In this document: positions 9,616 to 40,894 of the stretch, piece by piece
Layout: each line of letters opens with the position of its first letter
How positions within the stretch are numbered: the first letter of the stretch is position 1
Origin: Planctomycetota bacterium
GTDB taxonomy: Bacteria > Planctomycetota > UBA8742 > UBA2392
DNA: 64,000 nucleotides
NCBI GenBank assembly: GCA_015075515.1
Contig: JABTUE010000002.1
Span: 533,478-597,477, forward strand
Direction: 5' to 3'
The notes under the pieces: model-generated
What the model saw: the letters and a program-made list of their open reading frames with translations, nothing else
Told to the model about the DNA's origin: nothing
Database searches by the model: none
Made by a program: the position numbers and the translations under genes

Positions 9616-9628
9616 GGCCGGGTGCGTG

Positions 9629-20341: not shown

Positions 20342-20346
20342 CCTTC

Positions 20347-23562: not shown

Positions 23563-23634
23563 CCCTTCGGATGTTGCATTGGCGGCACATTTTGGTCTGG
23601 ACTCAGTACCTCGGTACGTGTCTACAATGCGGAC

Positions 23635-24036: not shown

Positions 24037-24102
24037 TCTCGCACGCGCCGATGCCCTCGGCATCGGGTTCAATGTTGGTGCCTCTTCTGCCTGAGGTGAC
24101 CC

Positions 24103-25476
24103 ATGCGTGCTGCATTCAAAATTGTCACATGCATTTCCTTCGCCGCGCTGTCCGCGTGCACGGCAGTCAATACTGAGAGGTCGCGACTGGACGCCACGCC
24201 AGCGCCGGACTTCAAGGCGCTGTCGTCGGCCCTGGACGATGTGCTTGCGGATCCTGCCAGGTCGCAGGCACCAGAGGCCCTGTCGGCTGCGTCGCTGGCT
24301 GACATCCAGCGAATGTCCCAGACGCGCAGCCCCTTTCTTGCCGCAGCCTACTACCGCTGGAAGGCCGCGGTGGCGCTGATCGACACGGCCTTTGAGATGC
24401 CTGAGGGCATGGTCGAGTACCGCGAGTTCATGCAGGCGGAGAGGGCCAACATTCGCCTCATGGATGAACGGCGCAGCGTGATGCTGTCCCAGATGTTCCC
24501 CAATCCCGGCAAGGTGGTGGCCCGCCAGGACATGCTGGCCGCTGAAGCTTCCGCCATGGCGGAGGAGTTCAGCGCCGTGCGGCGCGAGTTGCGTCGGCAG
24601 GTGACGGCCGCCTATGTGGACATCCAGTCGCTGGATGCCAGGGCTGAGGTGCTGCGGCAGCTGGTGGCACTGGCCAGCGGGCTGGAGGCGCTGATGGAGC
24701 CCATGGTCGAGACCGGTCAGGCCACGCAGGCCAGCCTGCTGCGCATGCAGGTCGAGCGCGAAGAGATGCAGAGCGATCTGGCATCGTTGTCTTTGCGAAG
24801 ACCGGCTCTAGTGAAGGTGCTGGAAGCGGCTTCGGGCGTCCGTCTCGACCCCGCGGTGACGGTGGACGCACTACCCGAAGTCCGTCGCGCGGTTGTGCCC
24901 GGCCGGGCTGAACAACTGGTTGCCCTGGAAACGCACCCCATGCTGCAAATCGCCCACGCGCAGGCACGGGTGGCGGACGCAAAGCTGATTGAATCGAGGT
25001 GGATGTGGGTGCCGGACTTCTTCGTCGCGGCAGAATGGATGCAGATGAACGTGCCGGGCGACATGCCCTTTGAAAGCGCCGTGGCGTTTCGCGTCGGCAT
25101 CACGATTCCCTGGAGTTTCGGCGCCAATGCTGCCCGCAGCAACGCCGCCGAGGCGGATCGCATGGCAGCCCTGCTGGTGGTTGCCCAGAAGCGGCTGGAT
25201 CTTCAGGCCGAGCTTGACGCCATGCTGTTCGAACTGGCCGATGCCGAACGCATGCTGCGCCTGCTGGGTACCAGCATCTTGCCCAAGGCCCGCCAGGCCT
25301 TGGAGTTGATCCAGGGTGATTTTTCCGCGGGCCGTGCCGGCCTGACTGATGTGATCAGCGCCTGGCAGGCCTGGCTGGGGGGCGAGCTGTCGCTTATCCG
25401 GGCTCGTGCGGAAGCCCTGAAGTCTCGTGCGGCCGTGGAGTCATTGACCGGACTGACCTTGAAAGATGAACCATAA
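24103..25476 (+). CDS. Outer-membrane efflux protein (TolC/CusC/CzcC family) lipoprotein
   Basis: Lipobox FAALSAC; two repeated helical halves of the OMF family; heads a four-gene efflux operon. Confidence 0.75.
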   Translation: MRAAFKIVTCISFAALSACTAVNTERSRLDATPAPDFKALSSALDDVLADPARSQAPEALSAASLADIQRMSQTRSPFLAAAYYRWKAAVALIDTAFEMPEGMVEYREFMQAERANIRLMDERRSVMLSQMFPNPGKVVARQDMLAAEASAMAEEFSAVRRELRRQVTAAYVDIQSLDARAEVLRQLVALASGLEALMEPMVETGQATQASLLRMQVEREEMQSDLASLSLRRPALVKVLEAASGVRLDPAVTVDALPEVRRAVVPGRAEQLVALETHPMLQIAHAQARVADAKLIESRWMWVPDFFVAAEWMQMNVPGDMPFESAVAFRVGITIPWSFGANAARSNAAEADRMAALLVVAQKRLDLQAELDAMLFELADAERMLRLLGTSILPKARQALELIQGDFSAGRAGLTDVISAWQAWLGGELSLIRARAEALKSRAAVESLTGLTLKDEP

Positions 25477-25487
25477 GGAGCAAGTAC

Positions 25488-26138
25488 ATGCGCAATGTAA
25501 TGGGATTTGTCACCGCCTGCGCCTTCATGTTGCTGGTGGGTGGCCTGATTCGAGGCGCGGCACTCAGCCGCGTTGACGCTCCGCTGGCCGAAAGCCAGCA
25601 GGATCAAAGCCAGCACCAGGGCCACGGCGCTGACACACCTGCGCAGCAACCCAAAGCAGAAGAGCCAACGAAGGCCGAGCCTGAGAGCAAAGAACCCGGG
25701 AAGGACAAGCCTGAGCCGGAGGCCGTCAAAGAACTTGAGAACGCCAACGATCCTGTGAGCAGCAAAGCGGCAGGCGACAAGCCCACAGTGCTGGAACACA
25801 AGGGCTGGAAAGTACGGTTTGAGAACGAGGCCAACCGCGACAAGTTCCTGAAGAAGCCGATCCGTTACTACGCTGCCCTGTCTCTTGAGCCCACCAGTGA
25901 CGGCAAGCTTCTGAAGGTGGACCCTTCCGGCTACGAAAAGGCTGCGCCCGCAACCTGCGGCATCATGGGCGGGGATATTGACCCTGACGGTGACGTGTTC
26001 GTCCTGCATCGAGGCTTCAAGGTCTACTTCTGCTGCTGGAGCGGCTGCGGCGACGAATTTGTGGCCAACGCTGCCAAGTACTACGACCATTACGGATTGG
26101 TCGAGAAGGACGGCAAGCTGGTGCGAAAGAAGGAGTAG
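25488..26138 (+). CDS. Periplasmic YHS/TRASH-domain metal-binding protein
   Basis: Signal-anchor, low-complexity Lys/Glu/Pro linker, two YHS-like modules (HKGWKVRFENEANRDKFLKKP; HRGFKVYFCCWSGCGDEFVANAAKYY). Confidence 0.5.
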   Translation: MRNVMGFVTACAFMLLVGGLIRGAALSRVDAPLAESQQDQSQHQGHGADTPAQQPKAEEPTKAEPESKEPGKDKPEPEAVKELENANDPVSSKAAGDKPTVLEHKGWKVRFENEANRDKFLKKPIRYYAALSLEPTSDGKLLKVDPSGYEKAAPATCGIMGGDIDPDGDVFVLHRGFKVYFCCWSGCGDEFVANAAKYYDHYGLVEKDGKLVRKKE

Positions 26139-26140
26139 CC

Positions 26141-27709
26141 ATGCCCGAAGAATCCCCAGCCGAAAAGCCGACGGATCCGGCGCGCCCCGGCTTCCTGAAG
26201 CGCCGCGCCTTTCTTGCTTCGGTTCTGGGTGGCACCGTGGCCGGCCTGGCTGGTGCCATGCTGGTGCCTCGTGACTGGCTGCTTGCGCCGGGAAAGTCTG
26301 CGGTCGACCCACATGCGGGCCATGGGTCCGGGGGAACCAAGGTCTTCTATGCCTGCCCCATGTTCTGCACGAGGCTGGACAAGCCCGGCGATTGCCCGGT
26401 GTGCGGCATGACGCTGGAAATGTTCGTGGACACAGGCGAAGTGCTGCCGCTGGACGATCGCGACCGCTGGGCCATGGGCATTCGCGCCGAGGCCCCAAAG
26501 CGGCGGATGCTCGCCCGTGAAATCCGGACCTTGGGCCAATTCGAGGTTGATGAATCCCTGGATCGGGTTGTCAGCGCATGGGTCGCGGGCCGGATTGACC
26601 GCATGCACGCGGACTACACGGGCGTTGCGGTGTCGGAAGGCGATCACTTGTTCGACTTGTACTCGCCGGACCTCTACTCAGCCCACAGGGAGTTAAAGGT
26701 TGCCCAGGACGCCGCAGCCGGCGGTACTCCCGGTGCCGACAAGCTGCTGCAACTGTCCCGCGAGAAACTCCGGCGGCTGGGACTGACCGCGCCTCAGCTG
26801 CAGCAGCTCGAAGGTCGCCCCGCCGATTCACCGACCTTCACCGTGCCCAGCCCCATCTCGGGTGTGGTTCTGGAGAAGATGGCACGCGAAGGCCAGTACT
26901 TGGAGACAGGCATGCCGGTGTACCGCGTGGCCGACCTGTCGCGCCTCTGGCTGATGTTGAGCATTCACGAGCGCGACCTTCCCTTTGTCGTGCTGGGCCA
27001 GCCGGTCCGTTTCGAGCTTGGGGGAGTTGCCCCCGAAACCGTCAGCGGGCAAGTCAGTTTCATTGACCCCACGCTCGACACCATGACACGCACAGCCCGT
27101 GTGCGTGTCGAGGTTCCCAATCAGTCCGGCCGACTCAAGCCCGGCATGTTTGGTACGGCGACGATTCTGGCCTGGCTCGCGTCAGACGGGACGGTGGCCC
27201 AGCCGGCACTGGCCGGCCAGTACGCCTGCCCGATGCACCCGCTGCAGTGGTCCGAAGTCGCAGGGGAGTCTTGCCGGATCTGCGGCATGTCTATGCGGCG
27301 ACGTGCCCCTCAACGCGGCAGCCCGCAGGCGCATGTTCTTTCAATCCCGCGCGAGGCCGTTCTCAGCACGGGGCGGCGTCACGTCGTGTACGTCGAGTGG
27401 TGGGCCAAACGCAAGCCGGACGGCACGGTCAGCCACAACCACGCCGGCCTGGCCGAGAAGCTGCAGAGGCCCGAGTACCAGGGCTTTGAAGTCAACCTGG
27501 GCGCGCTGTGCGCCGAATACCACGAACTGAAGGACGGCACACTTCATCGCGGTGACGAGTACTACGCCGTGCGTTCCGGCCTGCCATCGGGGGTACGGAT
27601 CGTGACAAACGGGCAGTTCCTGATTGACAGCCAGATGGAACTTGCGGGCAAACCCTCGCTGTTCCGGCCGGAAGGCGGGTCGGCGGCGGCAACCCACAGC
27701 GGTCATTGA
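26141..27709 (+). CDS. Heavy-metal efflux RND periplasmic adaptor (CusB/CzcB family) with two Cys-rich metal-binding modules
   Basis: FYACPMFCTRLDKPGDCPVCGM and YACPMHPLQWSEVAGESCRICGM motifs flanking a membrane-fusion-protein beta-barrel/lipoyl region. Confidence 0.8.
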   Translation: MPEESPAEKPTDPARPGFLKRRAFLASVLGGTVAGLAGAMLVPRDWLLAPGKSAVDPHAGHGSGGTKVFYACPMFCTRLDKPGDCPVCGMTLEMFVDTGEVLPLDDRDRWAMGIRAEAPKRRMLAREIRTLGQFEVDESLDRVVSAWVAGRIDRMHADYTGVAVSEGDHLFDLYSPDLYSAHRELKVAQDAAAGGTPGADKLLQLSREKLRRLGLTAPQLQQLEGRPADSPTFTVPSPISGVVLEKMAREGQYLETGMPVYRVADLSRLWLMLSIHERDLPFVVLGQPVRFELGGVAPETVSGQVSFIDPTLDTMTRTARVRVEVPNQSGRLKPGMFGTATILAWLASDGTVAQPALAGQYACPMHPLQWSEVAGESCRICGMSMRRRAPQRGSPQAHVLSIPREAVLSTGRRHVVYVEWWAKRKPDGTVSHNHAGLAEKLQRPEYQGFEVNLGALCAEYHELKDGTLHRGDEYYAVRSGLPSGVRIVTNGQFLIDSQMELAGKPSLFRPEGGSAAATHSGH

Positions 27710-27721
27710 TAGGGCGACGGC

Positions 27722-30700
27722 ATGGTCGGCAAGCTGATCGAGCAATGTCTGCGGATGAAGCTGCTGGTGCTGATCGCCACGGCCGGCGTGATCGTATTCG
27801 GTTTCAAGGCGCTGCTGGATAACCCCAAGGATGCAATCCCCGACATCAGCGTAAACCAGGTGATCGTCTCCACTGAATGGATGGGACGAAGCCCCCAGGA
27901 TGTCGAAGACCAGATCACCTACCCGCTGGCAAGCGCCTTGCAGGCCGTGCCCCGGGTTGAAGACGTGCGCACGATGTCAGGGTTCGGCATGTCGCGCGTG
28001 TACCTGATTTTCGAGGACGGCGTGGACATCTACTGGGCCCGCGCCCGGGTGCTGGAGCGCATGGCCGTGGCGCAGGCAAACCTGCCCCAGGGCGTTACGC
28101 CCACGTTGGGCCCCGACGCCACGGCGCTGGGCCAGGTCTACATGTACACCGTTGACGGCCCATACGATCTGGCCGAGCTGCGCACGATCCAGGATTACAC
28201 GCTGCGCTACGCCCTGCTGCAGGTCGACGGGGTGGCCGAGGTCGCCAGCATCGGCGGGTTTGTCCGCGAGTACCAGGTCGAGATTGACCCGGAGAGGCTG
28301 CGCGCCCACGACGTCATGCTCGACGATGTCGTCACAGCCCTCAAGAACTCCAACTTGGATGTGGGGGCCAAGGCCGTCGAAAAGGGCGGAGCCGAGTACC
28401 TGATTCGCGGCGTGGGATTCGTGAAGACCCTGTCTGACCTTGAACAGGTTGTCGTCAAGACCAACGGACACGTGGCTGTGCGCCTGTCGGACATTGCGCG
28501 GGTACAGCAAGGACCGGAGTTCCGGCGTGGCGCGCTGGCCGATGGCAACAGTGAGCGCGTTGGCGGCGTTGTCACCATCCGGTACGGCGCAAACCCGCTT
28601 GAAGTAGTGGAACGCGTCAAAGTGGAACTTGCGCGCCTGCAGACCACACTGCCGCAGGGAATCCAGGTCACTTCATTCTATGACCGGACCGAGCTGATTC
28701 ATGAAACGCTCGACACTCTGCGCGACACACTGGTTGAAGAAATCATTGTCACTGCGTTGATCATCCTGATCTTCCTGCTGCACATACGCAGCGCGCTGAT
28801 CGTCGCCAGCACCTTCCCGCTGGCCATGCTGCTGGGCTTCATCGGCATGCAGGTGTTCGGGGTTTCCAGCAACATCATGAGCCTGGGCGGCATCGCGATT
28901 GCCATCGGCGACATTGCCGACATGGCGATCATCATGACCGAGGCGATCTACTTGGGCCTGCTTGACGACAAGGGTCGAAGCCCGCGAATTCAGGTCGTCG
29001 GCAATGCGGCCCGTGAAGTCGGCGGTGCCATCGTCACCAGCGTGGCGACCACGGTGATCAGCTTCATCCCGATCTTCGCCCTGACCGGCCAGAGCTACAA
29101 GATGTTTGCGCCCATGGCCTGGACGAAGACACTGACCCTGAGTGCCTCGTTGCTGCTTGCGGTGTGTCTGGTGCCCGTGCTGTGCTACATGTTCATTGGC
29201 GGGCGGACGGCCAAGCAGCTCGCGCCGCGTCAACGCCGATTCAGCGCTGTGCTGAAGTGGGTGGCGGCTCTGGGCATGAGCGCGCTGGTGGCTTGGGTCG
29301 TGATCCGTTCTGACCGGTACATCGAAGCCTGGCTCGGGCTGGATGCGGCCTTTGTCGCCGTGCCGGCCTTCCTGTTGGCGGCGCTTGGTGTGTTACGGGT
29401 CTGGGTCGAACCCCTCACGCCGATTGAATCCAACCCGGTTTCGCGCGCTCTGGTCGGAGTGTACCGGCCGACGCTGAGTCATTTCCTGCGTCGCGGCAGG
29501 CTGCTGTACGCATTTGCCGCGGTCTTCATGGTCCTTGGTGCCATGGCCGCCTTTGGCGCGCATGTGGTGTTATGGCCCATCAAGGCGCCGATGGAGGCTG
29601 CCGGCGGTGAACCCGACCGGATCCGCCCGATTGCCGCGATCCAAGACCACTACCCGGGTTTCGGCCAGGAGTTCATGCCGCCGCTGGATGAAGGTTCGCT
29701 GCTGTTCATGCCTTCGCTGCTCTCACAGGCCAGCCTTTCAGAGACACTGCGGGTGATGGAGTGGCAGACCCAGCAGATCATGACCGTGCCTGAGGTCGCC
29801 CAGGCCATAGGCAAGCTGGGCCGGGCCGAAACTGCCCTGGACCCCGCGCCGATCGGCATGATCGAGACGGTTGTGATCCTGAAGCCCCGCGACCAATGGC
29901 GGCCGGGCATGGACAAGAAGCAGCTCGTGGCCGAGCTTCGCCGTGTCACGGGACTGAAGGGCGCAGCACCAAGCTGGCTGCAACCGATCCAGACCCGCGT
30001 TGTCATGCTGTCCAGCGGCATACGCTCACAGATCGGGTTGGAAATCCTGGGTGATGATGCCAACCAGCTTGCGGAACTGGCGCTGGCGCTCGAACCGATC
30101 ATCAAGCAGGTTGAGGGCGCGGGCGACGTTGTAGCCATGCGCACCGGTGGCAAACCCTACATCGAGTATCGTCTGCGCCGGGAACGGATGCAGCACTATG
30201 GCCTGTCAGTGATGATGGTCCAGGAGACCATTGAGGCCGCGGTGGGCGGCATGAAGCTGACGACCACAGTGGAAGGGCGCGAACGCTACCCGGTGCGTCT
30301 GCGTTACGAACGCGATTTGCGCGACCGATTGGAAGACCTGGAACGCATTTTGGTCGCGACGCCCGGCGGCGCGCAGGTGCCGATCACGGAAGTGGCGGAC
30401 ATTGAATACGTGGTCGGCCCTTCCGAGATCCGCGGTGCAAACGGCAAGCTGGCCGGCTACGTCACATTCAACACGGTCGGCGTTGATGAAACACGCCTGA
30501 TCGCGCGGGTCGAAGAGCGCCTGCAGCAGGCCATCAACAACAAGGAGATCGACTGGCCGTCGGGCTACTCCTTCAACTGGGTCGGCCAGTACCAGGAACA
30601 GCAGCGCACAAACCAGCGCCTGATTCTGATCGTGCCGGTGATCCTTGCGTTGATTCTCCTGATCCTGTACCTGCACTTCCGCAGGTGGTCCTACACCCTG

Positions 30701-31198
30701 ATCGTGTTCTCAGGCCTTCCGCTGAACCTCGCGGGCGGGGCGCTGATGATCCGGTACTGGCCCTGGCTGCAAAACCTGTTCACGGGCCAGCCTCAGGGCC
30801 CGCCGGTCTATGTGACGGTCGCAGTCATCGTGGGATTCCTGGTGCTGGCCGGGGTCGCGCTGAATGACGGCGTGGTCGTAGGCACCTACATTGAACAGCT
30901 GCGGCAACGCAAGCCGCCCCGAACGATTCAGGACATGCGCGATCTTGTCACCGAGGCCGGAAGCCGCCGCGTGCGCCCGGCATTCATGACCCTGCTGACC
31001 AGCCTGATCGGACTGTTGCCCATCCTGTGGGCGACCGGCCGGGGCAGCGACGTGATGCAGCCCATGGCTCTGCCGATCTTCGGCGGGATGCTGATTGACG
31101 CGGTGTCCATGTTCATGGTGCCCGTCGTCATGTGCCGCTGGCACGAATGGCACCTGCGAGCGGAATTGAAACGTGCCAGTTCGACTAGTACCGCCTGA
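27722..31198 (+). CDS. Heavy-metal efflux RND pump (CusA/CzcA family, HME-RND)
   Basis: 1158 aa, 12-TM two-repeat RND architecture with large periplasmic loops; conserved charged-residue relay AIGDIADMAIIMTE in TM4. Confidence 0.9.
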   Translation: MVGKLIEQCLRMKLLVLIATAGVIVFGFKALLDNPKDAIPDISVNQVIVSTEWMGRSPQDVEDQITYPLASALQAVPRVEDVRTMSGFGMSRVYLIFEDGVDIYWARARVLERMAVAQANLPQGVTPTLGPDATALGQVYMYTVDGPYDLAELRTIQDYTLRYALLQVDGVAEVASIGGFVREYQVEIDPERLRAHDVMLDDVVTALKNSNLDVGAKAVEKGGAEYLIRGVGFVKTLSDLEQVVVKTNGHVAVRLSDIARVQQGPEFRRGALADGNSERVGGVVTIRYGANPLEVVERVKVELARLQTTLPQGIQVTSFYDRTELIHETLDTLRDTLVEEIIVTALIILIFLLHIRSALIVASTFPLAMLLGFIGMQVFGVSSNIMSLGGIAIAIGDIADMAIIMTEAIYLGLLDDKGRSPRIQVVGNAAREVGGAIVTSVATTVISFIPIFALTGQSYKMFAPMAWTKTLTLSASLLLAVCLVPVLCYMFIGGRTAKQLAPRQRRFSAVLKWVAALGMSALVAWVVIRSDRYIEAWLGLDAAFVAVPAFLLAALGVLRVWVEPLTPIESNPVSRALVGVYRPTLSHFLRRGRLLYAFAAVFMVLGAMAAFGAHVVLWPIKAPMEAAGGEPDRIRPIAAIQDHYPGFGQEFMPPLDEGSLLFMPSLLSQASLSETLRVMEWQTQQIMTVPEVAQAIGKLGRAETALDPAPIGMIETVVILKPRDQWRPGMDKKQLVAELRRVTGLKGAAPSWLQPIQTRVVMLSSGIRSQIGLEILGDDANQLAELALALEPIIKQVEGAGDVVAMRTGGKPYIEYRLRRERMQHYGLSVMMVQETIEAAVGGMKLTTTVEGRERYPVRLRYERDLRDRLEDLERILVATPGGAQVPITEVADIEYVVGPSEIRGANGKLAGYVTFNTVGVDETRLIARVEERLQQAINNKEIDWPSGYSFNWVGQYQEQQRTNQRLILIVPVILALILLILYLHFRRWSYTLIVFSGLPLNLAGGALMIRYWPWLQNLFTGQPQGPPVYVTVAVIVGFLVLAGVALNDGVVVGTYIEQLRQRKPPRTIQDMRDLVTEAGSRRVRPAFMTLLTSLIGLLPILWATGRGSDVMQPMALPIFGGMLIDAVSMFMVPVVMCRWHEWHLRAELKRASSTSTA

Positions 31199-31347
31199 CA
31201 GGCCCCGCCTGGCCGCGCTGTATCCTGTGGTGGTCACCCTGAACGATAGCCCGCATGTGCGTCCCGGCTCTCGGCCGTAGATGTCGGGCCTGACCCATAC
31301 TTCTAGTCAGCAGACTTGCAGCCCCACTTGGGGGCCAAGGAGGTCCC

Positions 31348-33093
31348 ATGCCTATACAACTGGTTGTTCGCGCGGATGCGTCGAGCACCCTGCGCAACAT
31401 CTTGAACTACTCTTCAGGCAACTTTGCGTGGGTCCAGGAGCTGCTTCAGAACGCGCGTCGTGCTGAGGCTTCCGAGGTGCGGGTTGAAATCGATACCCGC
31501 GCTGGCACCGTCACCGTGACCGACAACGGCCACGGTGTGCTTGACCCGCAGGACCTGATCAACATCGGCAAGTCCGACTGGGCCGAGGGTGTCAGGGCCG
31601 AACGCCCCGCCGGCATGGGCCTGTTTAGCGTGTTCAAGCTGGGCGGCCTGGCCGAGGTGCGTTCCGGCCGCTGGCGGCTCACGCTGGACTACGAGGCAAT
31701 GTGCGCCGGCAAGCCTGCGGTCTATGAAGGCCTGCTGCCCGCAATGAAGGGCACGCAGGTCAGGGTCAGCCGGCTGCACCACGCGTTTGGCAGCCACGAC
31801 ATGCCCCACGTTGAGGGCTATGCCCAACAGTGGCAGCGTCAGGCCGAGTTCATGCCCTTCCGCACCACGATCATCGTTGACGGCGCCAGCCGCGTCGTTG
31901 ACCCCTACAGCCCGCAGGCTGTGCCCAAGGGTGCCCTGCGCGCGGACACCTCGTGGGGCTTCATTGATCTGCACACCGAACCGCCGGCCCGCGGCGACCA
32001 CGCCGGCGTGGCGCTGATCCGGCAGGGCATCTCGACCCGGCTCAAGGGCCTTTCCGGCCCCTCAGACATGGCCTGGGTGCGCATCCATGCCCGGCCGGGC
32101 ACGGTCAGCTTCACCCTGCCTGACCGCGATGCGATCATTGAAGACACCGACTACCGCAACCTGGTCACCGAGGTCCAGCAGCCCCTGGTGCAGGCCGTGA
32201 TCGGTCGCACCTTTCAGTTTGGCGACGACAAGGCCCGCCAACGATTGTCCAGCCTGGTCTATGCCTGGAACCCGCTGCGGGTGATTGACCTGCCCCCGGA
32301 CCTGCAGCACCTGCAGCTGCGCCAGGATCGCGATTACCTGTACACGCTGACGCGCCAGCAGGTGGCCGAGCGGCTCTCCAAGGGCGCCTTGGCCTGTGCC
32401 TTTGAGCCCCAATACCACACGACCCTTGAGCTGGTGCCCAACGAGATGCTGCAACTGGCCTCAGGGCAGGCCCAGTTGTTCAAGGCCATGTTCCCTGATG
32501 TGCCGCTGATAACCGAGATCCGCTTCGGCATCACGGCCGACGACCGCAGCGACCTGCTGTGGCGTTGCGAGCGCGTTACCTACAGGTTCGACACTGGCGA
32601 GACCCGGGAGGTCCAGCCGGTGCCGGAACAGACCGTGTTGGCTGACGGCGACCTGGAGGGCGAGTTCGTGCCCGACGACCGAGATCGAGCCGACTTCCGC
32701 AGCGGCAATGACTTTGCCGTGGTGCACAGCTGCGCCGACGCTGTGGCCTACCCGAACCTGGATCCGTGGCACGCCTGGCACGAGGAAGAACTGGACCAGG
32801 AACAGGCCGACGAACTGTGGCGCACCAGCGACCTCGCCGTGCACATCGCGGCGAAGTGGCCGGGTGTGCCGGCCAATGACGTGATTCCGGACGAACTGGT
32901 CACGCTGCTGCGCGATCGGCTGGCCGACGGCAAGGACTGCCGGCTGCGCTTTGCCAACGCCAAGTTCGAGCTGGGCTGGGGCAACCAGCTAAGCATCCGG
33001 TCCATACTGGTCGAGGTTGTCGAGAACGGAAAGGTCACCCGCAAGGTGCGCCTGGTCGAGAACTGCGGCTACCTGCAGGAGGTGAAGCTATGA
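31348..33093 (+). CDS. GHKL-superfamily (HATPase_c-like) ATPase domain protein, function unknown
   Basis: N-box ELLQNARRAEASEV and G1 box VTVTDNGHGV in first 70 aa; remaining ~480 aa unassigned; AAGGAGG RBS before ATG. Confidence 0.5.
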   Translation: MPIQLVVRADASSTLRNILNYSSGNFAWVQELLQNARRAEASEVRVEIDTRAGTVTVTDNGHGVLDPQDLINIGKSDWAEGVRAERPAGMGLFSVFKLGGLAEVRSGRWRLTLDYEAMCAGKPAVYEGLLPAMKGTQVRVSRLHHAFGSHDMPHVEGYAQQWQRQAEFMPFRTTIIVDGASRVVDPYSPQAVPKGALRADTSWGFIDLHTEPPARGDHAGVALIRQGISTRLKGLSGPSDMAWVRIHARPGTVSFTLPDRDAIIEDTDYRNLVTEVQQPLVQAVIGRTFQFGDDKARQRLSSLVYAWNPLRVIDLPPDLQHLQLRQDRDYLYTLTRQQVAERLSKGALACAFEPQYHTTLELVPNEMLQLASGQAQLFKAMFPDVPLITEIRFGITADDRSDLLWRCERVTYRFDTGETREVQPVPEQTVLADGDLEGEFVPDDRDRADFRSGNDFAVVHSCADAVAYPNLDPWHAWHEEELDQEQADELWRTSDLAVHIAAKWPGVPANDVIPDELVTLLRDRLADGKDCRLRFANAKFELGWGNQLSIRSILVEVVENGKVTRKVRLVENCGYLQEVKL

Positions 33094-33305
33094 CCACGCC
33101 GCTCAGGCAGGGCAAGAAGCTCGCAAGGGTCGTCCCCAGCCGCAGCCACGACGCCCGCAAGACCAAGCGAATGTTCGTCGAGCTTGATCACACAGGCCTG
33201 TTGCCGGAGATCCGCCTCCAGCCGGCAGGGAAACGCAGCGGGGTCAACATCACCGTGGACGGGTGCTACGAGATGCTGGTGAAGCTAGTGGTTCAACATT
33301 TTTGA
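33090..33305 (+). CDS. Small ORF translationally coupled to GHKL ATPase; 3' end lies inside IS630 element
   Basis: ATGA overlap with upstream stop; last six codons are IS630 terminal sequence. Confidence 0.25.
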   Translation: MTTPLRQGKKLARVVPSRSHDARKTKRMFVELDHTGLLPEIRLQPAGKRSGVNITVDGCYEMLVKLVVQHF

Positions 33306-33347
33306 TTCAGTCGGTGGCGTTGGCTTGCCGATGGGTGGGTATCCACC

Positions 33348-33806
33348 TTGAGGAGCCTTCCCATGGCCAAGCGCTACATCGTCCGCCTCACCGCTGAAGA
33401 ACGGGATCAGCTTACCGCCCTCGTCAAGACAGGCAAAGCGGCCGCCAAGAAGCGCCTGCATGCCCAGGTCCTGCTTCTGGCCGACGCTGACGGGCCGAGT
33501 CTGATCGACGCCCACATCGCCACCGCCTGCCGGATCCACGTCAAGACCATCGAGCGCATCCGCCGCCACTTCGTTCTCGACGGCCTCGAACGCGCGCTCA
33601 ATCGCAAGAAGCAGGAGCGTCCGTCCCGCCAGCCGAAGCTCGACGGCCGCGGCCAAGCACGGTTGACCGCCTTGGCCTGTTCCAAAGCGCCCGATGGCCG
33701 CGCGAACTGGACGTTGGAACTTCTTGCCGACGAGCTTGTGCGCCTGAACATTGTGGACTCCATCTGTGGCGAAACCGTGCGGCGCTATCTTCAAAAAACG
33801 AGTTGA
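33348..33806 (+). CDS. IS630-family transposase, N-terminal HTH part (OrfA)
   Basis: Helix-turn-helix-rich 152 aa; ends at A6 slippery run (33793-33798). Confidence 0.7.
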   Translation: MRSLPMAKRYIVRLTAEERDQLTALVKTGKAAAKKRLHAQVLLLADADGPSLIDAHIATACRIHVKTIERIRRHFVLDGLERALNRKKQERPSRQPKLDGRGQARLTALACSKAPDGRANWTLELLADELVRLNIVDSICGETVRRYLQKTS

Positions 33807-34495
33807 GGCCGCACCAAAGCGAGTACTGGTGCATCCCGCCCAAAGAGAATGCGGCTTTCGTGGCGCAGATGGAGGAGGTGCTTGATCTGTACCACGCGCC
33901 CTACGACCCGTCGTGTCCGCTGGTGTGCATGGATGAGTCGCCCAAGCAGCTTGTGGCGGAAACCCGCAGCCCCTTGCCGATGGAGCCGGGCAAGCCGCGT
34001 CGCTTTGACTATGAGTACGAGCGCAAGGGCATTGCCGAGATCTTCATGTTCACCGAGCCGTTGACCGGCCTGCGCTGGGTGAACGTGCGGGAGCGCCGCA
34101 CCAGGAAGGACTGGGCCGAGCAGGTGCGCTGGCTGCTGGAAGAAATCTTCCCCTGCGCGGCCAAGGTCACGCTGGTGTGCGACAATCTGAACACTCACAC
34201 CAAGGCCTCACTCTACGAGGCCTTCGATCCGAAGACGGCCAACAGGCTGGCGAAGAGACTGGATCTGCGGCATACGCCCAAACACAGAAGCTGGTTGAAC
34301 ATCGCCGAGATTGAACTCAAAGCCCTCTCAACGCAATGCCTGAACCGGCGCATCCCCGACTTGGCGACGCTGGCAAGCGAGACGCGGGCGTGGCAACATG
34401 GGCGCAACGCCGCGAGCCGGAAAGTTGACTGGCACTTCACCACCCAAGACGCACGCACCAAACTGAAAAGCCTTTACCCGACAACTCAATCGTGA
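33803..34495 (+). CDS. IS630-family transposase, DDE catalytic part (OrfB)
   Basis: VCMDESPKQL..., LVCDNLNTH, NIAEIELKALSTQCL motifs of IS630/Tc1 DDE domain; reached from OrfA by frameshift. Confidence 0.7.
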   Translation: MRPHQSEYWCIPPKENAAFVAQMEEVLDLYHAPYDPSCPLVCMDESPKQLVAETRSPLPMEPGKPRRFDYEYERKGIAEIFMFTEPLTGLRWVNVRERRTRKDWAEQVRWLLEEIFPCAAKVTLVCDNLNTHTKASLYEAFDPKTANRLAKRLDLRHTPKHRSWLNIAEIELKALSTQCLNRRIPDLATLASETRAWQHGRNAASRKVDWHFTTQDARTKLKSLYPTTQS

Positions 34496-34522
34496 CGAAC
34501 CACTAGCCTTCAGAGGTGCAAC

Positions 34523-35032
34523 ATGGTCACAGAGGATCCACTTGCTGTCGTCCACTACGAGGGAAAGTGGACTTGGTACCGGAGCGAAGTGGACTATTGG
34601 GTACTCGATAGTCGGCGATGGGTAGATGCGTTCATACGAGAGGGTTACGACGTTGGACCCGACCCCTATGGAGATCGCTTCGGCATTGAGATCGTCGACG
34701 ACAAAAACTTCGGATCCTTCTTAGCCAAAATGGACCCATTCAAAGTCAAGATCGACGAGGTCGCGGCTGAGCTGTGGGAAGCATATCGGAGGAACACTTC
34801 TTCATGGTGGGATGTCGCACACCTCTTCCCTCAGATTTGGTTAGATGCCGACCTCAAAGTATTGCGATCTGTGTACGGTGATGGTGTGGAGCTTGAAAAG
34901 TATGTGCCCCCTGGTTGGCGTGGTCTCTACATTGATTTCCTTTCCGCGTCTGGCGATTCGCTACCCGAGGCAATGCAGTACTGGAAAAAAGGGAAGGTCA
35001 ACTTGCTAGAGCATTTCAAAGGCCGCGTGTGA
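34523..35032 (+). CDS. Hypothetical protein in low-GC segment between two IS elements
   Basis: 169-aa ORF, Trp/Tyr/Asp-rich, no recognised motif; local GC visibly lower than surroundings. Confidence 0.4.
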   Translation: MVTEDPLAVVHYEGKWTWYRSEVDYWVLDSRRWVDAFIREGYDVGPDPYGDRFGIEIVDDKNFGSFLAKMDPFKVKIDEVAAELWEAYRRNTSSWWDVAHLFPQIWLDADLKVLRSVYGDGVELEKYVPPGWRGLYIDFLSASGDSLPEAMQYWKKGKVNLLEHFKGRV

Positions 35033-35290
35033 GTGCGGACAGGCTCAGTGCTGAACTCGATCCTTCTTGGTGTGGCTGTCGCCTGATGACGCACGAGAAA
35101 TGAGTGCTTTAATTGCTGGAATGGCTCAGAGCCCCCTAGCGCCTTCAAGCGGTTAGTGATCACCGAAATCAGTCTGTTGGCGTAGTCCGGAGTCGAACAC
35201 AAGGCTTGGAGTCGAAAAATGCGTCATCTTGCTAACTCACCCTGCTTGATCTTGCTAGGCTTGCTTCTTAGAGGCTGTTTCAAAACCATT

Positions 35291-35677
35291 CTAACTCCGT
35301 AATGCCTTGTTGAAGCAGATCATGGCGGCGGCGAGGGTATGAAACCCGATCAGGCTCAGAGGCGTCTTCTCGTAACACACGCGCAACCTGCGCCAGGCCT
35401 TGAACCACGGGATCGTGCGCTCCACCACGTACCGCAGTTTACCCAGCCCGCTGCCGTGGGTGTTGTCTCCGGGCCTTGCCAGCAGAGACTTCACGCCCAT
35501 GGCCTTGACCCGAATGATGTTCCACTCCCATCCGTAGCCGCGATCCGCAAGGTAGTACTCGGGCCGGCAGATCGGTGGTCCCGCACGGCCGCGAATCGGC
35601 GGGATGGCGTGCAGCAAGGGCAGCGCGAGGTGCCCGTCCGGCACGTTGGCGCCCGTGAGGAAGTGCGCCAGCGGCAC
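35291..35677 (-). CDS. IS5-family transposase C-terminal DDE part
   Basis: YLADRGYGWEWNIIRVKAMGVK...VVERTIPWFKAWRRL motifs of the DDE_Tnp_1 family; separate frame from N-terminal ORF (programmed frameshift typical of this group). Confidence 0.7.
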   Translation of the reverse strand: MPLAHFLTGANVPDGHLALPLLHAIPPIRGRAGPPICRPEYYLADRGYGWEWNIIRVKAMGVKSLLARPGDNTHGSGLGKLRYVVERTIPWFKAWRRLRVCYEKTPLSLIGFHTLAAAMICFNKALRS

Positions 35678-35694
35678 GCCGTTGGCGTCGGTGA

Positions 35695-36093
35695 TCAGGT
35701 GGTGCTTGCAGCCTTGCTTGGCACGGTCGGTCGGGTTCGGGCCGGTGTGGGCCCCCCAAAAACCGCACGCATGGAGACGCTGTCGGCAACAGCGCGGGAG
35801 AGGTCAATCTTGCCCTGCCTGTTGAGCCTGGCCAGTGAAAGCTTCCAGATGGTCTGCCAGATGCCGGCTTTGGTCCAGTCCTTGAAGCGTCGCCAGCAGG
35901 TGGCCGGGCTAGCGGCTCCAAGCTCGGCCGGGATGCTGTTCCAGGCCCCGCCGGACTTGAGCACAAAGAGGATGCCCAGCAAACAGGCACGGGGATCGGC
36001 AACGGGCCGCCCGCCCTTTGGTTTGGGACGTTCGGGGGGAAGCAGGGGTTGGACGACGCTCCAAAGTTCATCGCTGACCAAGGGTCGAGGCAT
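35695..36093 (-). CDS. IS5-family transposase N-terminal part
   Basis: GGRPVADPRACLLGILFVLKSGGAWNSIP...WRRFKDWTKAGIW, the DUF4096-like N-terminal region typical of IS5/IS427 transposases. Confidence 0.7.
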   Translation of the reverse strand: MPRPLVSDELWSVVQPLLPPERPKPKGGRPVADPRACLLGILFVLKSGGAWNSIPAELGAASPATCWRRFKDWTKAGIWQTIWKLSLARLNRQGKIDLSRAVADSVSMRAVFGGPTPARTRPTVPSKAASTT

Positions 36094-36630: not shown

Positions 36631-37329
36631 TCAGCGTAGACTCTTGGCCAACAGGGCCAGTCTCTTGTTTGTTGCGGCGTCGGAGACCTGATCTCGAAGC
36701 CACCTAACCAACCTTCGAAAGTGCGTGGCTGGTAGCGCCCCTGGGTTGCGAGTGCCCGGCATTCGGCCGAACCAGCCAATCAAGTCAGCATCGGTGACGT
36801 GCGGTGGGTCCTCAACATCGACAAAGATCGGTTTACACGCATGAAACACGCCATGCTTGCGGGCACGGGCACGATACTTGAGGTTCCATTTCCCAAGATC
36901 GTTGTCTTTGCAATCGGTATGGTCGAGCGGGAACGGCATGCTGTCGCGTAGCATGCAGTTGCTGGGCGGCTCAACGCCCCGCTTGCGGTACCACCGGGCA
37001 GCCCGCTCGTGTGCGCGGAGACCGTTTTCGTCGACCTCAGGTCGCCATGACTTCAACACGCGGAGTACCGCAACAAGTCGCCTGCCGGACTCTTCGCCCC
37101 TGGGGTACACGATCTTCTTGGTCATGTAGGCGACCACGTCACCCTGCTTCAGCCGCGGTGCAAAGTTGCCGGCGCGGCATAGCGCTGTGATGGACGGGTA
37201 CTTGGACCTGAGGTCCGGCTCACGACGGCAAGACGCGTCAATGAATGGTGGCAGGCCAAAAAGCGCAACGGCACGCCGCCCGTGGGCGTTATGGATCAAG
37301 GGTCTGAAGGTGTTCAGGTACAGGGACAT
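36631..37329 (-). CDS. Hypothetical protein, last gene of the minus-strand defence-like operon
   Basis: 232-aa ORF 49 nt downstream of the DUF499-like gene on the same strand; no recognised motif. Confidence 0.4.
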   Translation of the reverse strand: MSLYLNTFRPLIHNAHGRRAVALFGLPPFIDASCRREPDLRSKYPSITALCRAGNFAPRLKQGDVVAYMTKKIVYPRGEESGRRLVAVLRVLKSWRPEVDENGLRAHERAARWYRKRGVEPPSNCMLRDSMPFPLDHTDCKDNDLGKWNLKYRARARKHGVFHACKPIFVDVEDPPHVTDADLIGWFGRMPGTRNPGALPATHFRRLVRWLRDQVSDAATNKRLALLAKSLR

Positions 37330-37378: not shown

Positions 37379-40303
37379 TCACAACCCGGCCTGGACGTCG
37401 TCGTTCAGTCCGAGCTCCCTGAGGTCCGCCTTCGTCTCGTCCATCTTCTGCGCTTGAACGCCGCCCTCGGGAGCTGCCTCGAAACTCACGCTTAGTTTCA
37501 AATTGCCGGCCGTGGCGTACTTGGCCAAGACCTTGGTGTAGAAGTTCATCCACTTCTGCGCCGGCACCTCGCCCGTCCAACGCAGCGTCTTCTGCTTTGG
37601 GGGCTCAGGTAAAGGCGGCGGTTGCGGCGTCTCCTTGCTGGAGATCCTCAATGTTGCTCTCGCCTGAATGTCATCCACGACCGCCTCAACAACGTACTCA
37701 CCTTCCTCGCCAGTGGCCTTGAATCCACCCTTGTCGTCAATGTCGCCGCCCGTGGCTGACCACTTCACGCCACTGACATTCATCGGTCGGCCATGCTGGT
37801 CCAGCCCGCCCACACGAAACACAACGCGCCCCTTGGGTTTCACGTTGGCAATCGAGGGACTGATCTCGATGCTTGTCAGCTTGGGCGGCTCCACGTGCTT
37901 CTTGGCTTCGTCGGCCGTGAGGATCACAACATCGTCTGAAATCTCAATGTCCTCGGCCGCGCAGTCCTGTTCGAAGATGAACGGCTCGTAACGTCCATCT
38001 GGGCGCTTGCCCGCGTATGCTAGGATCTTCTCGCTGACGCCTCTGGCGATGGTCTCCTTGATGACGTCCGCGTTGAGCAGGCGTGGGAACTCCGGGGAAG
38101 CGAAAAATGCATCCCGCACTGCACGTGTGCTCCACTCTGCAAATCCGGGCCATTTCCGGACGAGGAAGTTCGGCGTGATGGTCTTTTCGACGACGCCTTG
38201 CTCCCGAAGTCGCTTGAGTATGACCTCGACCATTGTTGAAGCCTGGCTGGAGTTGATCAGTCCCAAGTCGATCCTGGTCAACTCGTTGTCCTTGCCCAGC
38301 AACAGCAGGAACTTGTAGCTACGCCATACAGATTCCTTCACATCGCGCTTTGCCCGCACCACGTGTTCGGCAAGCTGGCGTTTCTGGCCATCGTCGATGT
38401 GGAGCTCATCCTTTTCGGCGTCAATCGCCTCCCACGCCAGCGCCTTGCGAACTTCTTCTCGCACGTGGTTGGCGGACTCGGCCACGCACCACACAATCGC
38501 GCTCTTGAAGGTCCGGCCTGACTTTCCGCACTCCCATGTCATGGGCTTCACCAAGGCCTTGGTCTTGGCTTCCTCCTCCATGGAATGCTCAGGCGCGAGC
38601 ACTGCCAGCGTCAAGATTGGTCGGTCTGCGACAGCGCTGCTCTTCTCTGGAAAGAACACGCGTTCGATGCCATTGTCTGGCGGAAATACCTTCTGGATTT
38701 CAGCCCGCGCTCGTTCGTCAATCGCCTTCTCCGTGATGCTGGCACGCCTGTCCGAAAAGCGCTTTATCAGATTCTCGGTAGTACTGAACTTGTACCGGTT
38801 GCGTTCAACGGACAGGTAGTAGCAGCCCTGGCTGAGCGTCTCCAGCACGGTTTCAATATGGCCGATGTCGAGGCCGGGCTCGCCCACACCCAGCCGAATC
38901 TCCGGCACAGTTGCCACCGCCTTGAGTTGGCCGCCGTTGGATTCAAAGAAAACTGTCGTGGCAACCTTCTTGTGCAGCCTGGCCTTGCGAATATCCGGCG
39001 TGGCTTCACGGTCCAGCCGGTCTGCGTGGGAGTCGTTCTTGCCGGAAATGTCGGTCGTAACCGCGCCCTCAAGCTTGTTCTCACCCAGCTGCTCAAAGGT
39101 CGCGGTGCGGAAGAATGGATCCTCAAGTGGCGCAGAACCAAGGCCGATCAACGCGTCCTTGTGTGCCCCGCGGTAGTCGTCGCTGTAGGCCTTGGACACC
39201 CACAATGCAAGCAAACGCAGAATGCCGCGGGTCTGCTGGAACCTCGGAAGCTGCTGCCACTTGCGCTCAAACACCGACAAGACCACGGGGTGAAACGGAT
39301 ATGTGGCGGCAAACGCCTCCCTGGCGTTATCCGCGGGAAACCAGCCCGGAATCTGTGTGCGGTGCTCCGACACCCACTCGGCGTATGCCGCAACGACCTT
39401 TTCGGCTTCCTTCGTCAAGCCTTCCCACTCGAAGAGGCGCCGACGAATGATCTCGGCGGTTTCGGTTTCGGCGGACAGCAGTACGGCCTTGGCGTACTTG
39501 TCCAGCTTCTTCTTGATGCGCTGGTAATCGTCCTGGTCCTCAGCCGTCATCTCCAGGTCGGACTTCGGTATCGACACCATTAAAACGATGCGATTGGACG
39601 TCGCCGCAACTTCGCACAGGTTCTCGATGAAGTTGTAAAGCTCGCCGCCAAGGCCGTTCTTCCGGTTTCGGCTGACATAGTTCATGACCTCGTCCATCAG
39701 GATGAGGCAGGGCTTCTTGTCGGGGATGAACGAACGGATCACTTCGCCGGATGGCGCCGTCTTCTGTTTCTCGTGCTCGGCGACCAGTTCAAAGCCTTCC
39801 TTGCCGCCGATCTGCCAGGCCAGTTCTCCCCACGGTGTCTTGCGCACTGGCGTGCCGTCTTTGCCGCCGCGCCCCGTTAGCGAATCGAACTCCGTTCCTA
39901 CAAAAATGCCCGTGGCAGCCTTGGGCACTTCCTTCGTTCCCGCGTGCTCAAGGATGGTGCTGACGCCCCGCCACGACTTTGCCTCTTTGCCGGCCGAAGC
40001 AAGGTGATACAGCAACGTCAACGCGTGGGTCTTGCCGCCGCCGAACTGGGTCACGAGGTTGAAGACGGGCGAGCTCTCAACCACGATTCCCGACAGCCGC
40101 CGCACAACCTGTGCCGCCGTGGTCAGCAGCCCCTTGGTCAGATATGTGCGGCCGAAGAAACGTGCCGGGTCCTGATAGTCCTGCCGTGCATTGCCGTCGC
40201 GCACCTGGTCGAGGTGCACGGCGAACTCTGATGCATCCAGCGGCTTGCCCTCGCGCAGGTCTTCGCGGGGGTAGATCACCTTGTACCAGGGTTGAAGGGC
40301 CAT
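37379..40303 (-). CDS. DUF499-like P-loop ATPase (974 aa)
   Basis: Walker A FGGGKTHALTLLYHL, Walker B CLILMDEVMNY, long helical C-terminal region; resembles the DUF499 family that co-occurs with DUF1156 methyltransferases. Confidence 0.7.
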   Translation of the reverse strand: MALQPWYKVIYPREDLREGKPLDASEFAVHLDQVRDGNARQDYQDPARFFGRTYLTKGLLTTAAQVVRRLSGIVVESSPVFNLVTQFGGGKTHALTLLYHLASAGKEAKSWRGVSTILEHAGTKEVPKAATGIFVGTEFDSLTGRGGKDGTPVRKTPWGELAWQIGGKEGFELVAEHEKQKTAPSGEVIRSFIPDKKPCLILMDEVMNYVSRNRKNGLGGELYNFIENLCEVAATSNRIVLMVSIPKSDLEMTAEDQDDYQRIKKKLDKYAKAVLLSAETETAEIIRRRLFEWEGLTKEAEKVVAAYAEWVSEHRTQIPGWFPADNAREAFAATYPFHPVVLSVFERKWQQLPRFQQTRGILRLLALWVSKAYSDDYRGAHKDALIGLGSAPLEDPFFRTATFEQLGENKLEGAVTTDISGKNDSHADRLDREATPDIRKARLHKKVATTVFFESNGGQLKAVATVPEIRLGVGEPGLDIGHIETVLETLSQGCYYLSVERNRYKFSTTENLIKRFSDRRASITEKAIDERARAEIQKVFPPDNGIERVFFPEKSSAVADRPILTLAVLAPEHSMEEEAKTKALVKPMTWECGKSGRTFKSAIVWCVAESANHVREEVRKALAWEAIDAEKDELHIDDGQKRQLAEHVVRAKRDVKESVWRSYKFLLLLGKDNELTRIDLGLINSSQASTMVEVILKRLREQGVVEKTITPNFLVRKWPGFAEWSTRAVRDAFFASPEFPRLLNADVIKETIARGVSEKILAYAGKRPDGRYEPFIFEQDCAAEDIEISDDVVILTADEAKKHVEPPKLTSIEISPSIANVKPKGRVVFRVGGLDQHGRPMNVSGVKWSATGGDIDDKGGFKATGEEGEYVVEAVVDDIQARATLRISSKETPQPPPLPEPPKQKTLRWTGEVPAQKWMNFYTKVLAKYATAGNLKLSVSFEAAPEGGVQAQKMDETKADLRELGLNDDVQAGL

Positions 40304-40312
40304 CTCGCGCTC

Positions 40313-40894
40313 CTACTTCATCAAACCAAACCTGCCGGTGCCGGCGTCCAGTTGCCACCACTGAAAGAACCCGTACGGAAAGTACTCCGCCTCGTTCGTC
40401 CTGCCCACCACCACAAGGGTCTCGCCTTCAAGGCCGACACGGCCGGCAAGGCCCATGGCCTGCACCACCTGCTCTTCCAATGCCCGCACCAGCTTCGGCG
40501 CGTCCTCCGGGTTTCGCCGGTAGCAAAACACAACCCGCAAACTGGCCCGAACAATCAGCACCTTCCACAGCGAGTACGCAATGCGGTCAACCGCCTGGCT
40601 GTTCTCAAGCTCTGCGACCGCTACCGGGAACCTCCATCGCTTCTCGCTATCCCCAAAGGCCATCATGTCCAGTGCCAGGTACTCGCTTTGGTTCACCGGC
40701 AGCAGCGTGGCCTTGTGCCCGATGGCTGATGCCTGCCAGCCCACTTCGCGGCAGGTTTCCACCGTGCAAGTCGTCAGCGCCCTTGTCCAGGCCGCGAGCT
40801 TGCCCTGCGTGGCCGCCTGCTTGAGCGGCCCGGCGTGCTCCTGCCTGCTGACCAACTGCAGGAAGACATCGCGCCAGTCCGCGGCCTCAACCAT
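40313..40894 (-). CDS. DUF3780-like small protein
   Basis: 193 aa, position between the methyltransferase and ATPase genes as in DUF1156/DUF499 cassettes; 1-nt stop/start overlap (TAATG) with the methyltransferase gene. Confidence 0.45.
   Translation of the reverse strand: MVEAADWRDVFLQLVSRQEHAGPLKQAATQGKLAAWTRALTTCTVETCREVGWQASAIGHKATLLPVNQSEYLALDMMAFGDSEKRWRFPVAVAELENSQAVDRIAYSLWKVLIVRASLRVVFCYRRNPEDAPKLVRALEEQVVQAMGLAGRVGLEGETLVVVGRTNEAEYFPYGFFQWWQLDAGTGRFGLMK

Follow-up and report, generated by a model that had tools for sequence, protein, structure and literature searches.

The window analysed here is a stretch of 64,000 nucleotides from a Planctomycetota bacterium (contig JABTUE010000002.1 of assembly GCA_015075515.1). 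Our subject is a gene for a 581-residue GHKL ATPase at 31348-33093 on its forward strand, together with a small open reading frame (ORF) of 71 codons that overlaps its end (33090-33305, forward strand) and runs into an insertion sequence (IS) of the IS630 family. The initial annotation, whose coordinates were all correct, took the pair for a candidate two-gene defence system disrupted by the IS. Our analysis points elsewhere: the 581-residue gene is probably an intact backbone gene of small tRNA-associated islands, and it encodes an Hsp90/sacsin-type GHKL ATPase, proposed to be a clamp acting with a protein of the DUF932 family.

The ATPase gene is preceded by a ribosome-binding site, AAGGAGG, at 31337-31347 on the forward strand, which also marks the left edge of the segment common to its relatives (homology to L001, L004, L015 and L034 begins at 31332-31337; L numbers denote the loci fetched for comparison). 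Full-length homologues of the ATPase, at 32-90% identity, come nearly all from metagenome-assembled genomes of Planctomycetota, and the pairwise ratio of nonsynonymous to synonymous substitution (dN/dS) is 0.20-0.30. For the small ORF, compared with its counterparts in L001 and L004, dN/dS is 0.10-0.15 in its own frame and 1.5-2.9 in the other two frames of the same DNA, and the changes fall mostly at third positions. Because both ORFs have homologues and low dN/dS, they are, on this comparative evidence, real genes and not chance ORFs of GC-rich sequence.

Residues ~1-150 of the ATPase form a Bergerat ATP-binding domain, and residues ~155-581 are family-specific. In an alignment of 19 sequences, E31, N35, D59-G61-G63, G74-K75-S76, G89-G91 and G135-T136 are invariant or nearly so; all motifs of the GHKL superfamily (the N-box ExxxN, G1 as DxGxG, a G2 resembling GxxGxG, and GT) are present and conserved. 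The same alignment contains a family-specific invariant motif, LPDRD, at residues 257-261, and the extreme C-terminus, ...GYLQEVTP, is also conserved. Pfam matches are marginal and cover residues 29-95: HATPase_c_3 scores 26.3 bits against a cut-off of 25, and HATPase_c scores 26.5 against 26.4. With the complete set of conserved motifs, these scores above the cut-offs uphold the assignment to the GHKL ATPases. Pfam and NCBIfam together recognize residues ~27-99 only, with further sub-threshold matches to SACS/P_loop_sacsin, MutL and BbrUII, and searches of Pfam, PHROG, NCBIfam and PADLOC returned nothing for residues 120-581. MutL, the kind of housekeeping family that the initial annotation had said would speak against its proposal if matched by the C-terminal region, was considered and rejected: the TIGR00585 model gives 16.5 bits against a cut-off of 180, and only over N-terminal residues 29-64.

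More distant comparisons lead to Hsp90. The N-domain of HtpG is the top match in a profile search of Protein Data Bank (PDB) sequences (E 1.7e-4), and hhalign pairs residues 20-109 with residues 21-142 of Escherichia coli HtpG motif for motif at 95% probability, a result to be taken as supportive only. An AlphaFold2 model of the protein has a pLDDT of 85.8 and a pTM of 0.75, with low confidence at residues 1-12 and at residues 73-90, the latter probably the ATP lid. When the model was searched against the PDB with Foldseek, the top 36 matches all belonged to the Hsp90 family (TRAP1, Hsc82, HSP90B and HtpG; E 2e-15 to 4e-12, 460-690 aligned columns, TM 0.36-0.48), and gyrase appeared only after them. 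Among viral models (BFVD), the matches were rIIA-like proteins, phage Hsp90s and the ATPase subunits of phage topoisomerases (E ~1e-10, TM 0.3-0.4). These results place the protein among the Hsp90/sacsin-type GHKL ATPases: its predicted N-plus-middle architecture is Hsp90-like, and its C-terminal half is specific to the family.

The likeness to Hsp90 proteins such as HtpG, TRAP1 and Hsc82 thus includes the N-domain motifs (yFS..iQELLQNA, DNGxG, GKS, GxGxxSxF and GT), a fold-level match of the predicted N-plus-middle region to full-length structures and, probably, action as an ATP-driven dimeric clamp. It is limited, however, in that the likeness of sequence extends over ~90-145 N-terminal residues and the other 430 are family-specific, and in that the gene lies on mobile islands beside DUF932 rather than encoding a housekeeping chaperone. 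The curated HtpG models PRK05218 and PRK14083 give 18-25 bits against 371-455 for relatives, and in the NCBIfam search the window protein is unmatched by them at E<=0.01; by sequence, it falls outside the curated Hsp90 family. With the repeat region (SRR) of sacsin and the bacterial proteins described as sacsin N-terminal ATP-binding-like (NF047352 and PF25794), the protein shares the Bergerat subtype, and these models are among the top N-terminal matches in Pfam and NCBIfam, with scores below the cut-offs (26.7 against 50 bits and 20.2 against 32.8, respectively). In sacsin itself, Hsp90-like modules and a J domain occur in one protein (PMC3710099). The 581-residue ATPase, in contrast, is a single module without HEPN, UBL or J domain; the sacsin J domain nevertheless recalls the J-domain proteins encoded beside the ATPase in L015 and L005. 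Finally, the rIIA-like proteins of phages and the GHKL proteins of mobile elements (MORC/paraMORC and Topo VI-B/Topo VIII-like) resemble the ATPase in being carried by phages or mobile elements and in their BFVD fold matches. They differ from it in that no rIIB, Toprim/5Y-CAP subunit or restriction-modification partner accompanies the ATPase, whose likeness to Hsp90 is also the higher one.

The family is large. A profile search of 1.8 billion representatives found 2,379 relatives at E<=1e-3, of which 1,639 pass E<=1e-10. The majority measure 540-660 residues and have the first 150-300 positions in common; the members sampled carry generic names only. Genes beside distant members encode integrases, Xre-type HTH proteins, topoisomerase, Strawberry-notch-type and RecD2 helicases, methylase and Cdc6-like proteins, and some members lie in viral contigs of 48-200 kb. 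This is an uncharacterized family borne by integrative elements, integrative and conjugative elements (ICEs) and phages, and no member has a curated model. The locus of the most divergent full-length homologue (P0020; L040, positions 1-12349) is a phage- or plasmid-like contig; it contains about ten tandem paralogous genes of ~85 codons and, 1.7 kb downstream, a second, paralogous GHKL ATPase of 595 residues.

Neighbourhoods were compared by all-against-all ORF clustering in ten related loci, searches with hidden Markov models (HMMs) and gene calls. The conserved order begins with DUF932, followed by either a small Zn-ribbon ORF or a two-gene cargo slot, then the ATPase and, in some loci, the small ORF. 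It continues with a variable convergent cargo gene where present, a gene of 260-400 codons that we call c6, a gene of ~160 codons and a gene for a PD-(D/E)XK/Cas4-like nuclease. The DUF932 and ATPase genes share a strand and stand ahead of the array of c6, the ~160-codon gene and the nuclease. The DUF932 proteins have ~350 residues and match PF06067 and phrog_1362; the one in the window has 358 residues (22486-23562, forward strand; phrog_1362 at E 2e-32). The c6 gene has weak PHROG matches to families of DNA metabolism, and the nuclease matches PDDEXK_1 at E 6e-34. The ATPase described initially as an orphan therefore sits in a conserved neighbourhood of DUF932, c6, the ~160-codon gene and the nuclease, within tRNA-linked islands.

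DUF932 is the most constant of these neighbours. A homologue lies upstream of the ATPase in all ten fetched loci of the clade with at least 36% identity, and DUF932 is also present in L034, L035, L036 and L042. As a pair within ~3 kb on the same strand, ATPase and DUF932 are found in the same clade, in L034, L035 and L042, and in L010 and L021. The last two, from Dechloromonas and from a related metagenome, are betaproteobacterial, ICE-like loci in which the ATPase, a Toprim/Zn-ribbon primase-like gene and DUF932 follow one another in that order, with a TraI_2 relaxase nearby. The titles and abstracts of the literature found assign no function to DUF932, and the literature search yielded nothing specific on sacsin or GHKL proteins in mobile elements.

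Several features identify the surrounding DNA as mobile. A tRNA gene lies ~7.5 kb downstream in several loci (Asn in L005, Pro in L007 and L033, Gly in L015 and Met in L035), tyrosine integrases are encoded in L035 and L036, and the cargo varies by island: Hma-like or DISARM genes, Sel1-repeat and DnaJ-TPR proteins, Zn-ribbon membrane proteins, LRR/RHS proteins, a group II intron or a cus cassette. No direct repeats of tRNA 3' ends, as expected of att sites, were found inside the fetched 20-kb loci. Because of the tRNA genes, the integrases and the changing cargo, the loci are best described, from their gene content, as integrative genomic islands of Planctomycetota, small (~10-12 kb) and associated with tRNA genes, in which ATPase and DUF932 belong to the backbone. 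The group II intron-type reverse transcriptase is encoded at 5881-7545 of L037 on the reverse strand, and also in L038 and L039, between DUF932 and what remains of the ATPase gene.

A conserved non-coding element of ~150 nucleotides was also noticed directly upstream of c6 in ATPase islands (L015 13447-13595, L005 13310-13437, L007 13401-13541 and L001 ~12640-12860), and the window has a copy at a distant site, 58302-58453 on the reverse strand. RNAalifold folds four copies into one long imperfect hairpin of 44 pairs, 15 of them with compensatory double changes, at -57 kcal/mol. The L015, L005 and L007 copies have no Rfam match at the gathering score. The element could be a structured small RNA or a hairpin of single-stranded DNA (an ssi/Frpo-like promoter or origin).

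By analogy with other GHKL proteins, the ATPase would work as a dimeric ATP-driven clamp. Binding of ATP would close the N-domains, and a loop of the middle domain carrying the invariant LPDRD, with R260 as the candidate residue, would complete the active site. ATPase and DUF932 would probably act on the DNA or proteins of the island itself during excision, replication or establishment, with the small protein as an optional nucleic-acid-binding accessory. In the window, the cus cassette now stands between DUF932 and the ATPase, and IS630 has inserted into a TA that lay three codons short of the small gene's stop; both genes are still essentially intact. The ~2,400 Hsp90-like GHKL ATPases of 540-660 residues on islands, ICEs and phages make up a large unstudied family. 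If the ATPase is a mobile-element chaperone or clamp, Hsp90-type machines would extend to the biology of mobile DNA. The link to DUF932, itself a widespread family of mobile elements, is stable in Planctomycetes. Moreover, the same small island backbone with varied cargo (Hma, DISARM, metal efflux, Sel1, J-domain) offers a route to cargo genes in a poorly studied phylum.

A number of observations weigh against a backbone clamp working with DUF932. Several islands (L008, L009, L036 and L037-39) have lost the ATPase in whole or in part, which makes it dispensable, at least where persistence of the island is concerned. No DUF932 neighbour is recognizable for P0020, the most divergent of the full-length members, and among the distant loci only 2 of 12 have one. 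The middle and C-terminal likeness to Hsp90 is at the level of fold, with modest TM values, and hhalign aligned the N-domain alone. No annotated homologue gives a function for the ATPase family or for DUF932; gene prediction in the loci was by simple ORF calling, and the loci come mostly from metagenome assemblies. The islands also adjoin defence systems, and the ATPase may have a defence or anti-defence role.

The small ORF is coupled to the ATPase gene as the initial annotation had recognized. Its ATG (33090-33092) overlaps the TGA of the ATPase (33091-33093) in the context ...AAG CTA TGA CC..., which can be read in AAGCTATGACC, and a strong Shine-Dalgarno sequence, CAGGAGGTG, lies within the final codons of the ATPase ahead of it. 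The overlap is kept in L001, L004, L015 and L037-39; by sequence, translational coupling is confined to one sub-clade. An HMM of the small protein was run against six-frame translations of every fetched locus, and the small ORF was found only in the window, L001, L004, L015, L036 and L037-39; in L015 it is frameshifted by a 1-nucleotide deletion, maybe an assembly error. It follows 4 of the 13 full-length ATPase homologues and is absent in the other nine loci (L002, L005, L006, L007, L016/17, L034, L035, L040 and L042). It is also found where the ATPase has been lost. In L036, the ATPase is cleanly deleted, homology resumes 13 nucleotides before the small-ORF ATG, and both the small ORF and the downstream backbone are kept; in L037-39, an in-frame internal deletion has left an ATPase remnant of 113 residues, still coupled by ATGA to the small ORF. 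Judged from this distribution, the small ORF is a genuine, lineage-restricted, optional gene that does not depend on the ATPase. The idea of a two-gene system fares poorly here, and conservation next to ATPase homologues, on which it had been made to depend, is largely lacking.

The small protein is very basic, with a pI of 10.4 and a net charge of +7, and is predicted to consist of four beta-strands and a C-terminal helix (the best of five AlphaFold2 models has a pLDDT of 79, and the remaining four have low confidence). A fold search gave no significant match; the top one, a PUR repeat at E=2, has the same topology and can be taken as a lead only. Pfam, PHROG, NCBIfam and PADLOC have nothing for it. 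The charge and the modelled fold would suit a nucleic-acid-binding accessory of the DNA-metabolism gene array of the island.

The element that follows is an IS630 family member at 33288-34503 on the forward strand, flanked by the left and right copies of its TA target, at 33286-33287 (within the Leu66 codon CTA of the small ORF) and 34504-34505. Pfam finds HTH_32 in an ORF at 33348-33806 and DDE_3 in a second at 33803-34495, probably joined by frameshift at an A-run. The terminal inverted repeats begin with GTGGTTC, perfect over 7 nucleotides and imperfect beyond. With its DDE_3 transposase, N-terminal HTH, TA duplication and terminal inverted repeats, this is an ordinary member of the family, with nothing unusual about it and in single copy; a check for a second IS630 copy or solo end in the window, as a possible recombination substrate, found none.

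Codons 1-66 of the small ORF (33090-33287) are native, and codons 67-71 with the stop (33288-33305) are IS sequence: GTG GTT CAA CAT TTT TGA, giving VVQHF*. The earlier statement that the last six codons come from IS630 is correct if the stop is counted. The 16 members of the small-ORF family are 63-74 residues long and all at least 77% identical; past a conserved Y-E-L/M-L-V/T-K they have only 2-4 (in one case 9) variable residues, such as RSI, GAG, ASL, AGL or RGAL. The closest relative, in L001, whose ATPase is 90% identical, has a small ORF of 69 codons ending in EMLVKLGAG*, and the DNA homology between window and L001 ends within 1 nucleotide of the IS boundary at 33288. Since the 16 homologues stop so soon after LVK, the sequence comparison says that the IS has swapped about three non-conserved codons for five.

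The initial annotation had supposed that the small ORF once continued to the right of the IS. The proposed reconstruction, deletion of 33288-34505 in silico, did produce a longer ORF, of 105 codons with a tail of 39, yet this was rejected as the native form: the tail has no homologue, and known members end shortly after LVK. The tail overlaps the 169-codon ORF at 34523-35032 in a different frame, within a right flank (34506-35290, forward strand) whose GC content is ~0.53 as against 0.63-0.65 to the left and which has no match in any of the related loci fetched. For these reasons, the right flank is unrelated to the island family and is not the native continuation. Nor is the pair disrupted, since both proteins keep all their conserved residues.

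How do other explanations compare? That the ATPase and the small ORF work together in defence or abortive infection, as a two-gene module inactivated by IS630, seems to us highly unlikely. GHKL ATPases do occur in defence systems, the ATPase has weak matches to TmtA, the ATGA coupling is kept within the sub-clade, and the surroundings are rich in defence genes (Hma at 37379-48731 in the window, DISARM or Hma-like genes beside relatives). Against this stand the absence of the small ORF after most full-length homologues and its survival where the ATPase is gone, the replacement of merely ~3 non-conserved C-terminal codons, and the behaviour of the ATPase as a backbone gene, syntenic with DUF932 across islands of differing cargo. 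PADLOC-DB v2 adds no significant match: for the ATPase it gives only TmtA (E 0.013 over 32 residues), and for the small ORF and DUF932 nothing, so the defence role once proposed finds no backing there. An anti-defence or superinfection-exclusion factor has a very small chance too. Phage rIIA, a protein with a GHKL domain, acts against the Rex exclusion system; rIIA-like proteins are numerous among the viral-model matches (E ~1e-10 to 1e-11), distant family members lie in viral contigs, and the locus is surrounded by genes of the kind that mobile elements use early or for maintenance. However, the TM values of 0.29-0.37 are below those of Hsp90, and because phage topoisomerases and phage Hsp90s score alike, the rIIA match probably reflects the generic GHKL-plus-transducer fold. 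No PHROG match to rIIA was obtained, only one to phrog_6203 (function unassigned), and no rIIB-like partner was identified. The name of the closest homologue, P0001, suggests a sensor histidine kinase, and HATPase_c passes its Pfam cut-off, though by 0.1 bit. We give this next to no credence and consider it effectively refuted: neither Pfam nor NCBIfam scans reveal a HisKA/DHp, sensor or transmembrane domain, the ATPase domain occupies the very N-terminus, motifs and fold are of the Hsp90 type, and the gene calls and Pfam scans made show no adjoining response-regulator gene.

A true mobile-element chaperone is a more serious candidate, if still an unlikely one. Its co-chaperones would be J-domain/TPR or Sel1 proteins, with the J domain recruiting the DnaK of the host and the ...GYLQEVTP tail serving as a TPR-docking peptide, analogous to the MEEVD of eukaryotic Hsp90 or to the arrangement in sacsin. 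The best structural matches are indeed to Hsp90/TRAP1, the N-domain motifs are of the Hsp90/sacsin type and conservation reaches the very C-terminus. In two islands (L015 12184-13389 and L005 11893-13425, both on the reverse strand) a convergent neighbouring gene encodes a DnaJ+TPR protein, and seven-repeat Sel1 proteins lie beside the ATPase slot in two others (L036 8796-9833 and L042 8844-9896, again on the reverse strand). These neighbours are suggestive of co-chaperones and could also be chance cargo: they occur in ~4 of 11 islands at varying positions and are absent from the window, and such repeat proteins are common in Planctomycetes. The stable partner is instead DUF932, the surroundings look like DNA metabolism (the PD-(D/E)XK nuclease, ParB in L035 and primase in L010), and no client is known. 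It is similarly doubtful, in our estimate, that the ATPase family and DUF932, joined in certain islands by J-domain/TPR or Sel1 adaptors that could dock on the YLQEVTP tail, constitute a chaperone- or clamp-type module with which an island, ICE or phage establishes itself or neutralizes host factors. If true, this would be the mobile-element counterpart of the sacsin and Hsp90-co-chaperone arrangements and a first function for DUF932. The intact backbone ATPase acting as a clamp with DUF932 remains our preferred reading.

In the window, the island has been altered on both sides of the ATPase. Between DUF932 and the ATPase lies a cus-type copper/silver efflux cassette (23542-31188, forward strand), with an ORF like one of 134 codons, OEP (24103-25476), YHS (25488-26138), CusB (26141-27709) and CusA (27722-31198). 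The gene immediately left of the ATPase is thus the CusA-type RND pump, whose L001 homologue carries ACR_tran. The same cassette is found downstream of the small ORF in L001 (13896-20738; 79% identity) and, inverted, after a 44-codon ATPase stump in L009 (10383-18029; 92.5% identity), where it also includes the final 20 bp of DUF932, copied in inverted orientation. From these placements, it behaves as a mobile or recombining block of cargo. The native upstream region of the ATPase is missing, since homology starts 11-16 nucleotides before the ATG, and so is the upstream ORF of 69-75 codons seen in L001 and L033. A scan of 31000-35400 for promoters and terminators found nothing; it was crude, and the sigma-70 consensus may not fit this phylum. 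Because the native upstream DNA is gone and no terminator-like site follows cusA, the ATPase may be read through from the cus operon.

To the right, c6, the ~160-codon gene and the PD-(D/E)XK nuclease are absent from the whole window. The simplest reading is that the downstream backbone was lost or moved at IS630 by an IS-associated deletion or rearrangement, which we infer only, as a TA duplication is uninformative for IS630. The order beyond IS630 is the 169-codon ORF, an IS5-family element, a 232-codon ORF (36631-37329, reverse strand) and the Hma system. Neither the 169- nor the 232-codon ORF has a match in Pfam, PHROG, NCBIfam or PADLOC, or a homologue in the fetched loci. The IS5-family element (35291-36093, reverse strand) lies 0.8 kb right of IS630, with the 169-codon ORF sandwiched between the two, and has DUF4096 and DDE_Tnp_1 ORFs in two frames, probably joined by programmed frameshift.

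The Hma-type defence locus (37379-48731, reverse strand) looks complete. By rising coordinate, it comprises an HmaC/DUF499 ATPase (37379-40303; PADLOC E 2.5e-124), a 193-codon ORF, a DUF1156 methylase (40894-43818), an AAA_21/AAA_15 (OLD/Gabija-like) ATPase (43815-44906) and a SNF2 helicase with NOV_C (45270-48731). Among relatives, Hma-like genes (L036) or DISARM genes (L037) are seen beside the same island backbone.

At the other end, a tRNA-Val(GAC) gene is at 20265-20341. Between it and DUF932, in the region extending to 22454, is an rve-type (IS3-like) element, 86.5% identical to a copy beside the tRNA-Gly of L015. A 425-codon ORF at 20292-21569 on the reverse strand was considered as an integrase and rejected: it has no Pfam match and no similarity to the integrase in the window, and it is probably a shadow ORF of the rve-type IS. 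The region from 49.7 to 64 kb was likewise considered as a second copy of the same island and rejected, as all they have in common is an integrase 28% identical to that of the L036 island. This integrase, of the tyrosine type (49819-51207), is adjoined by a 47-nucleotide 3' fragment of tRNA-Gly(CCC) at 49691-49737, with 100% identity to both the L015 tRNA-Gly and a fragment found in L036. The window fragment is what is left of an att site belonging to another integrative island, which extends to the right.

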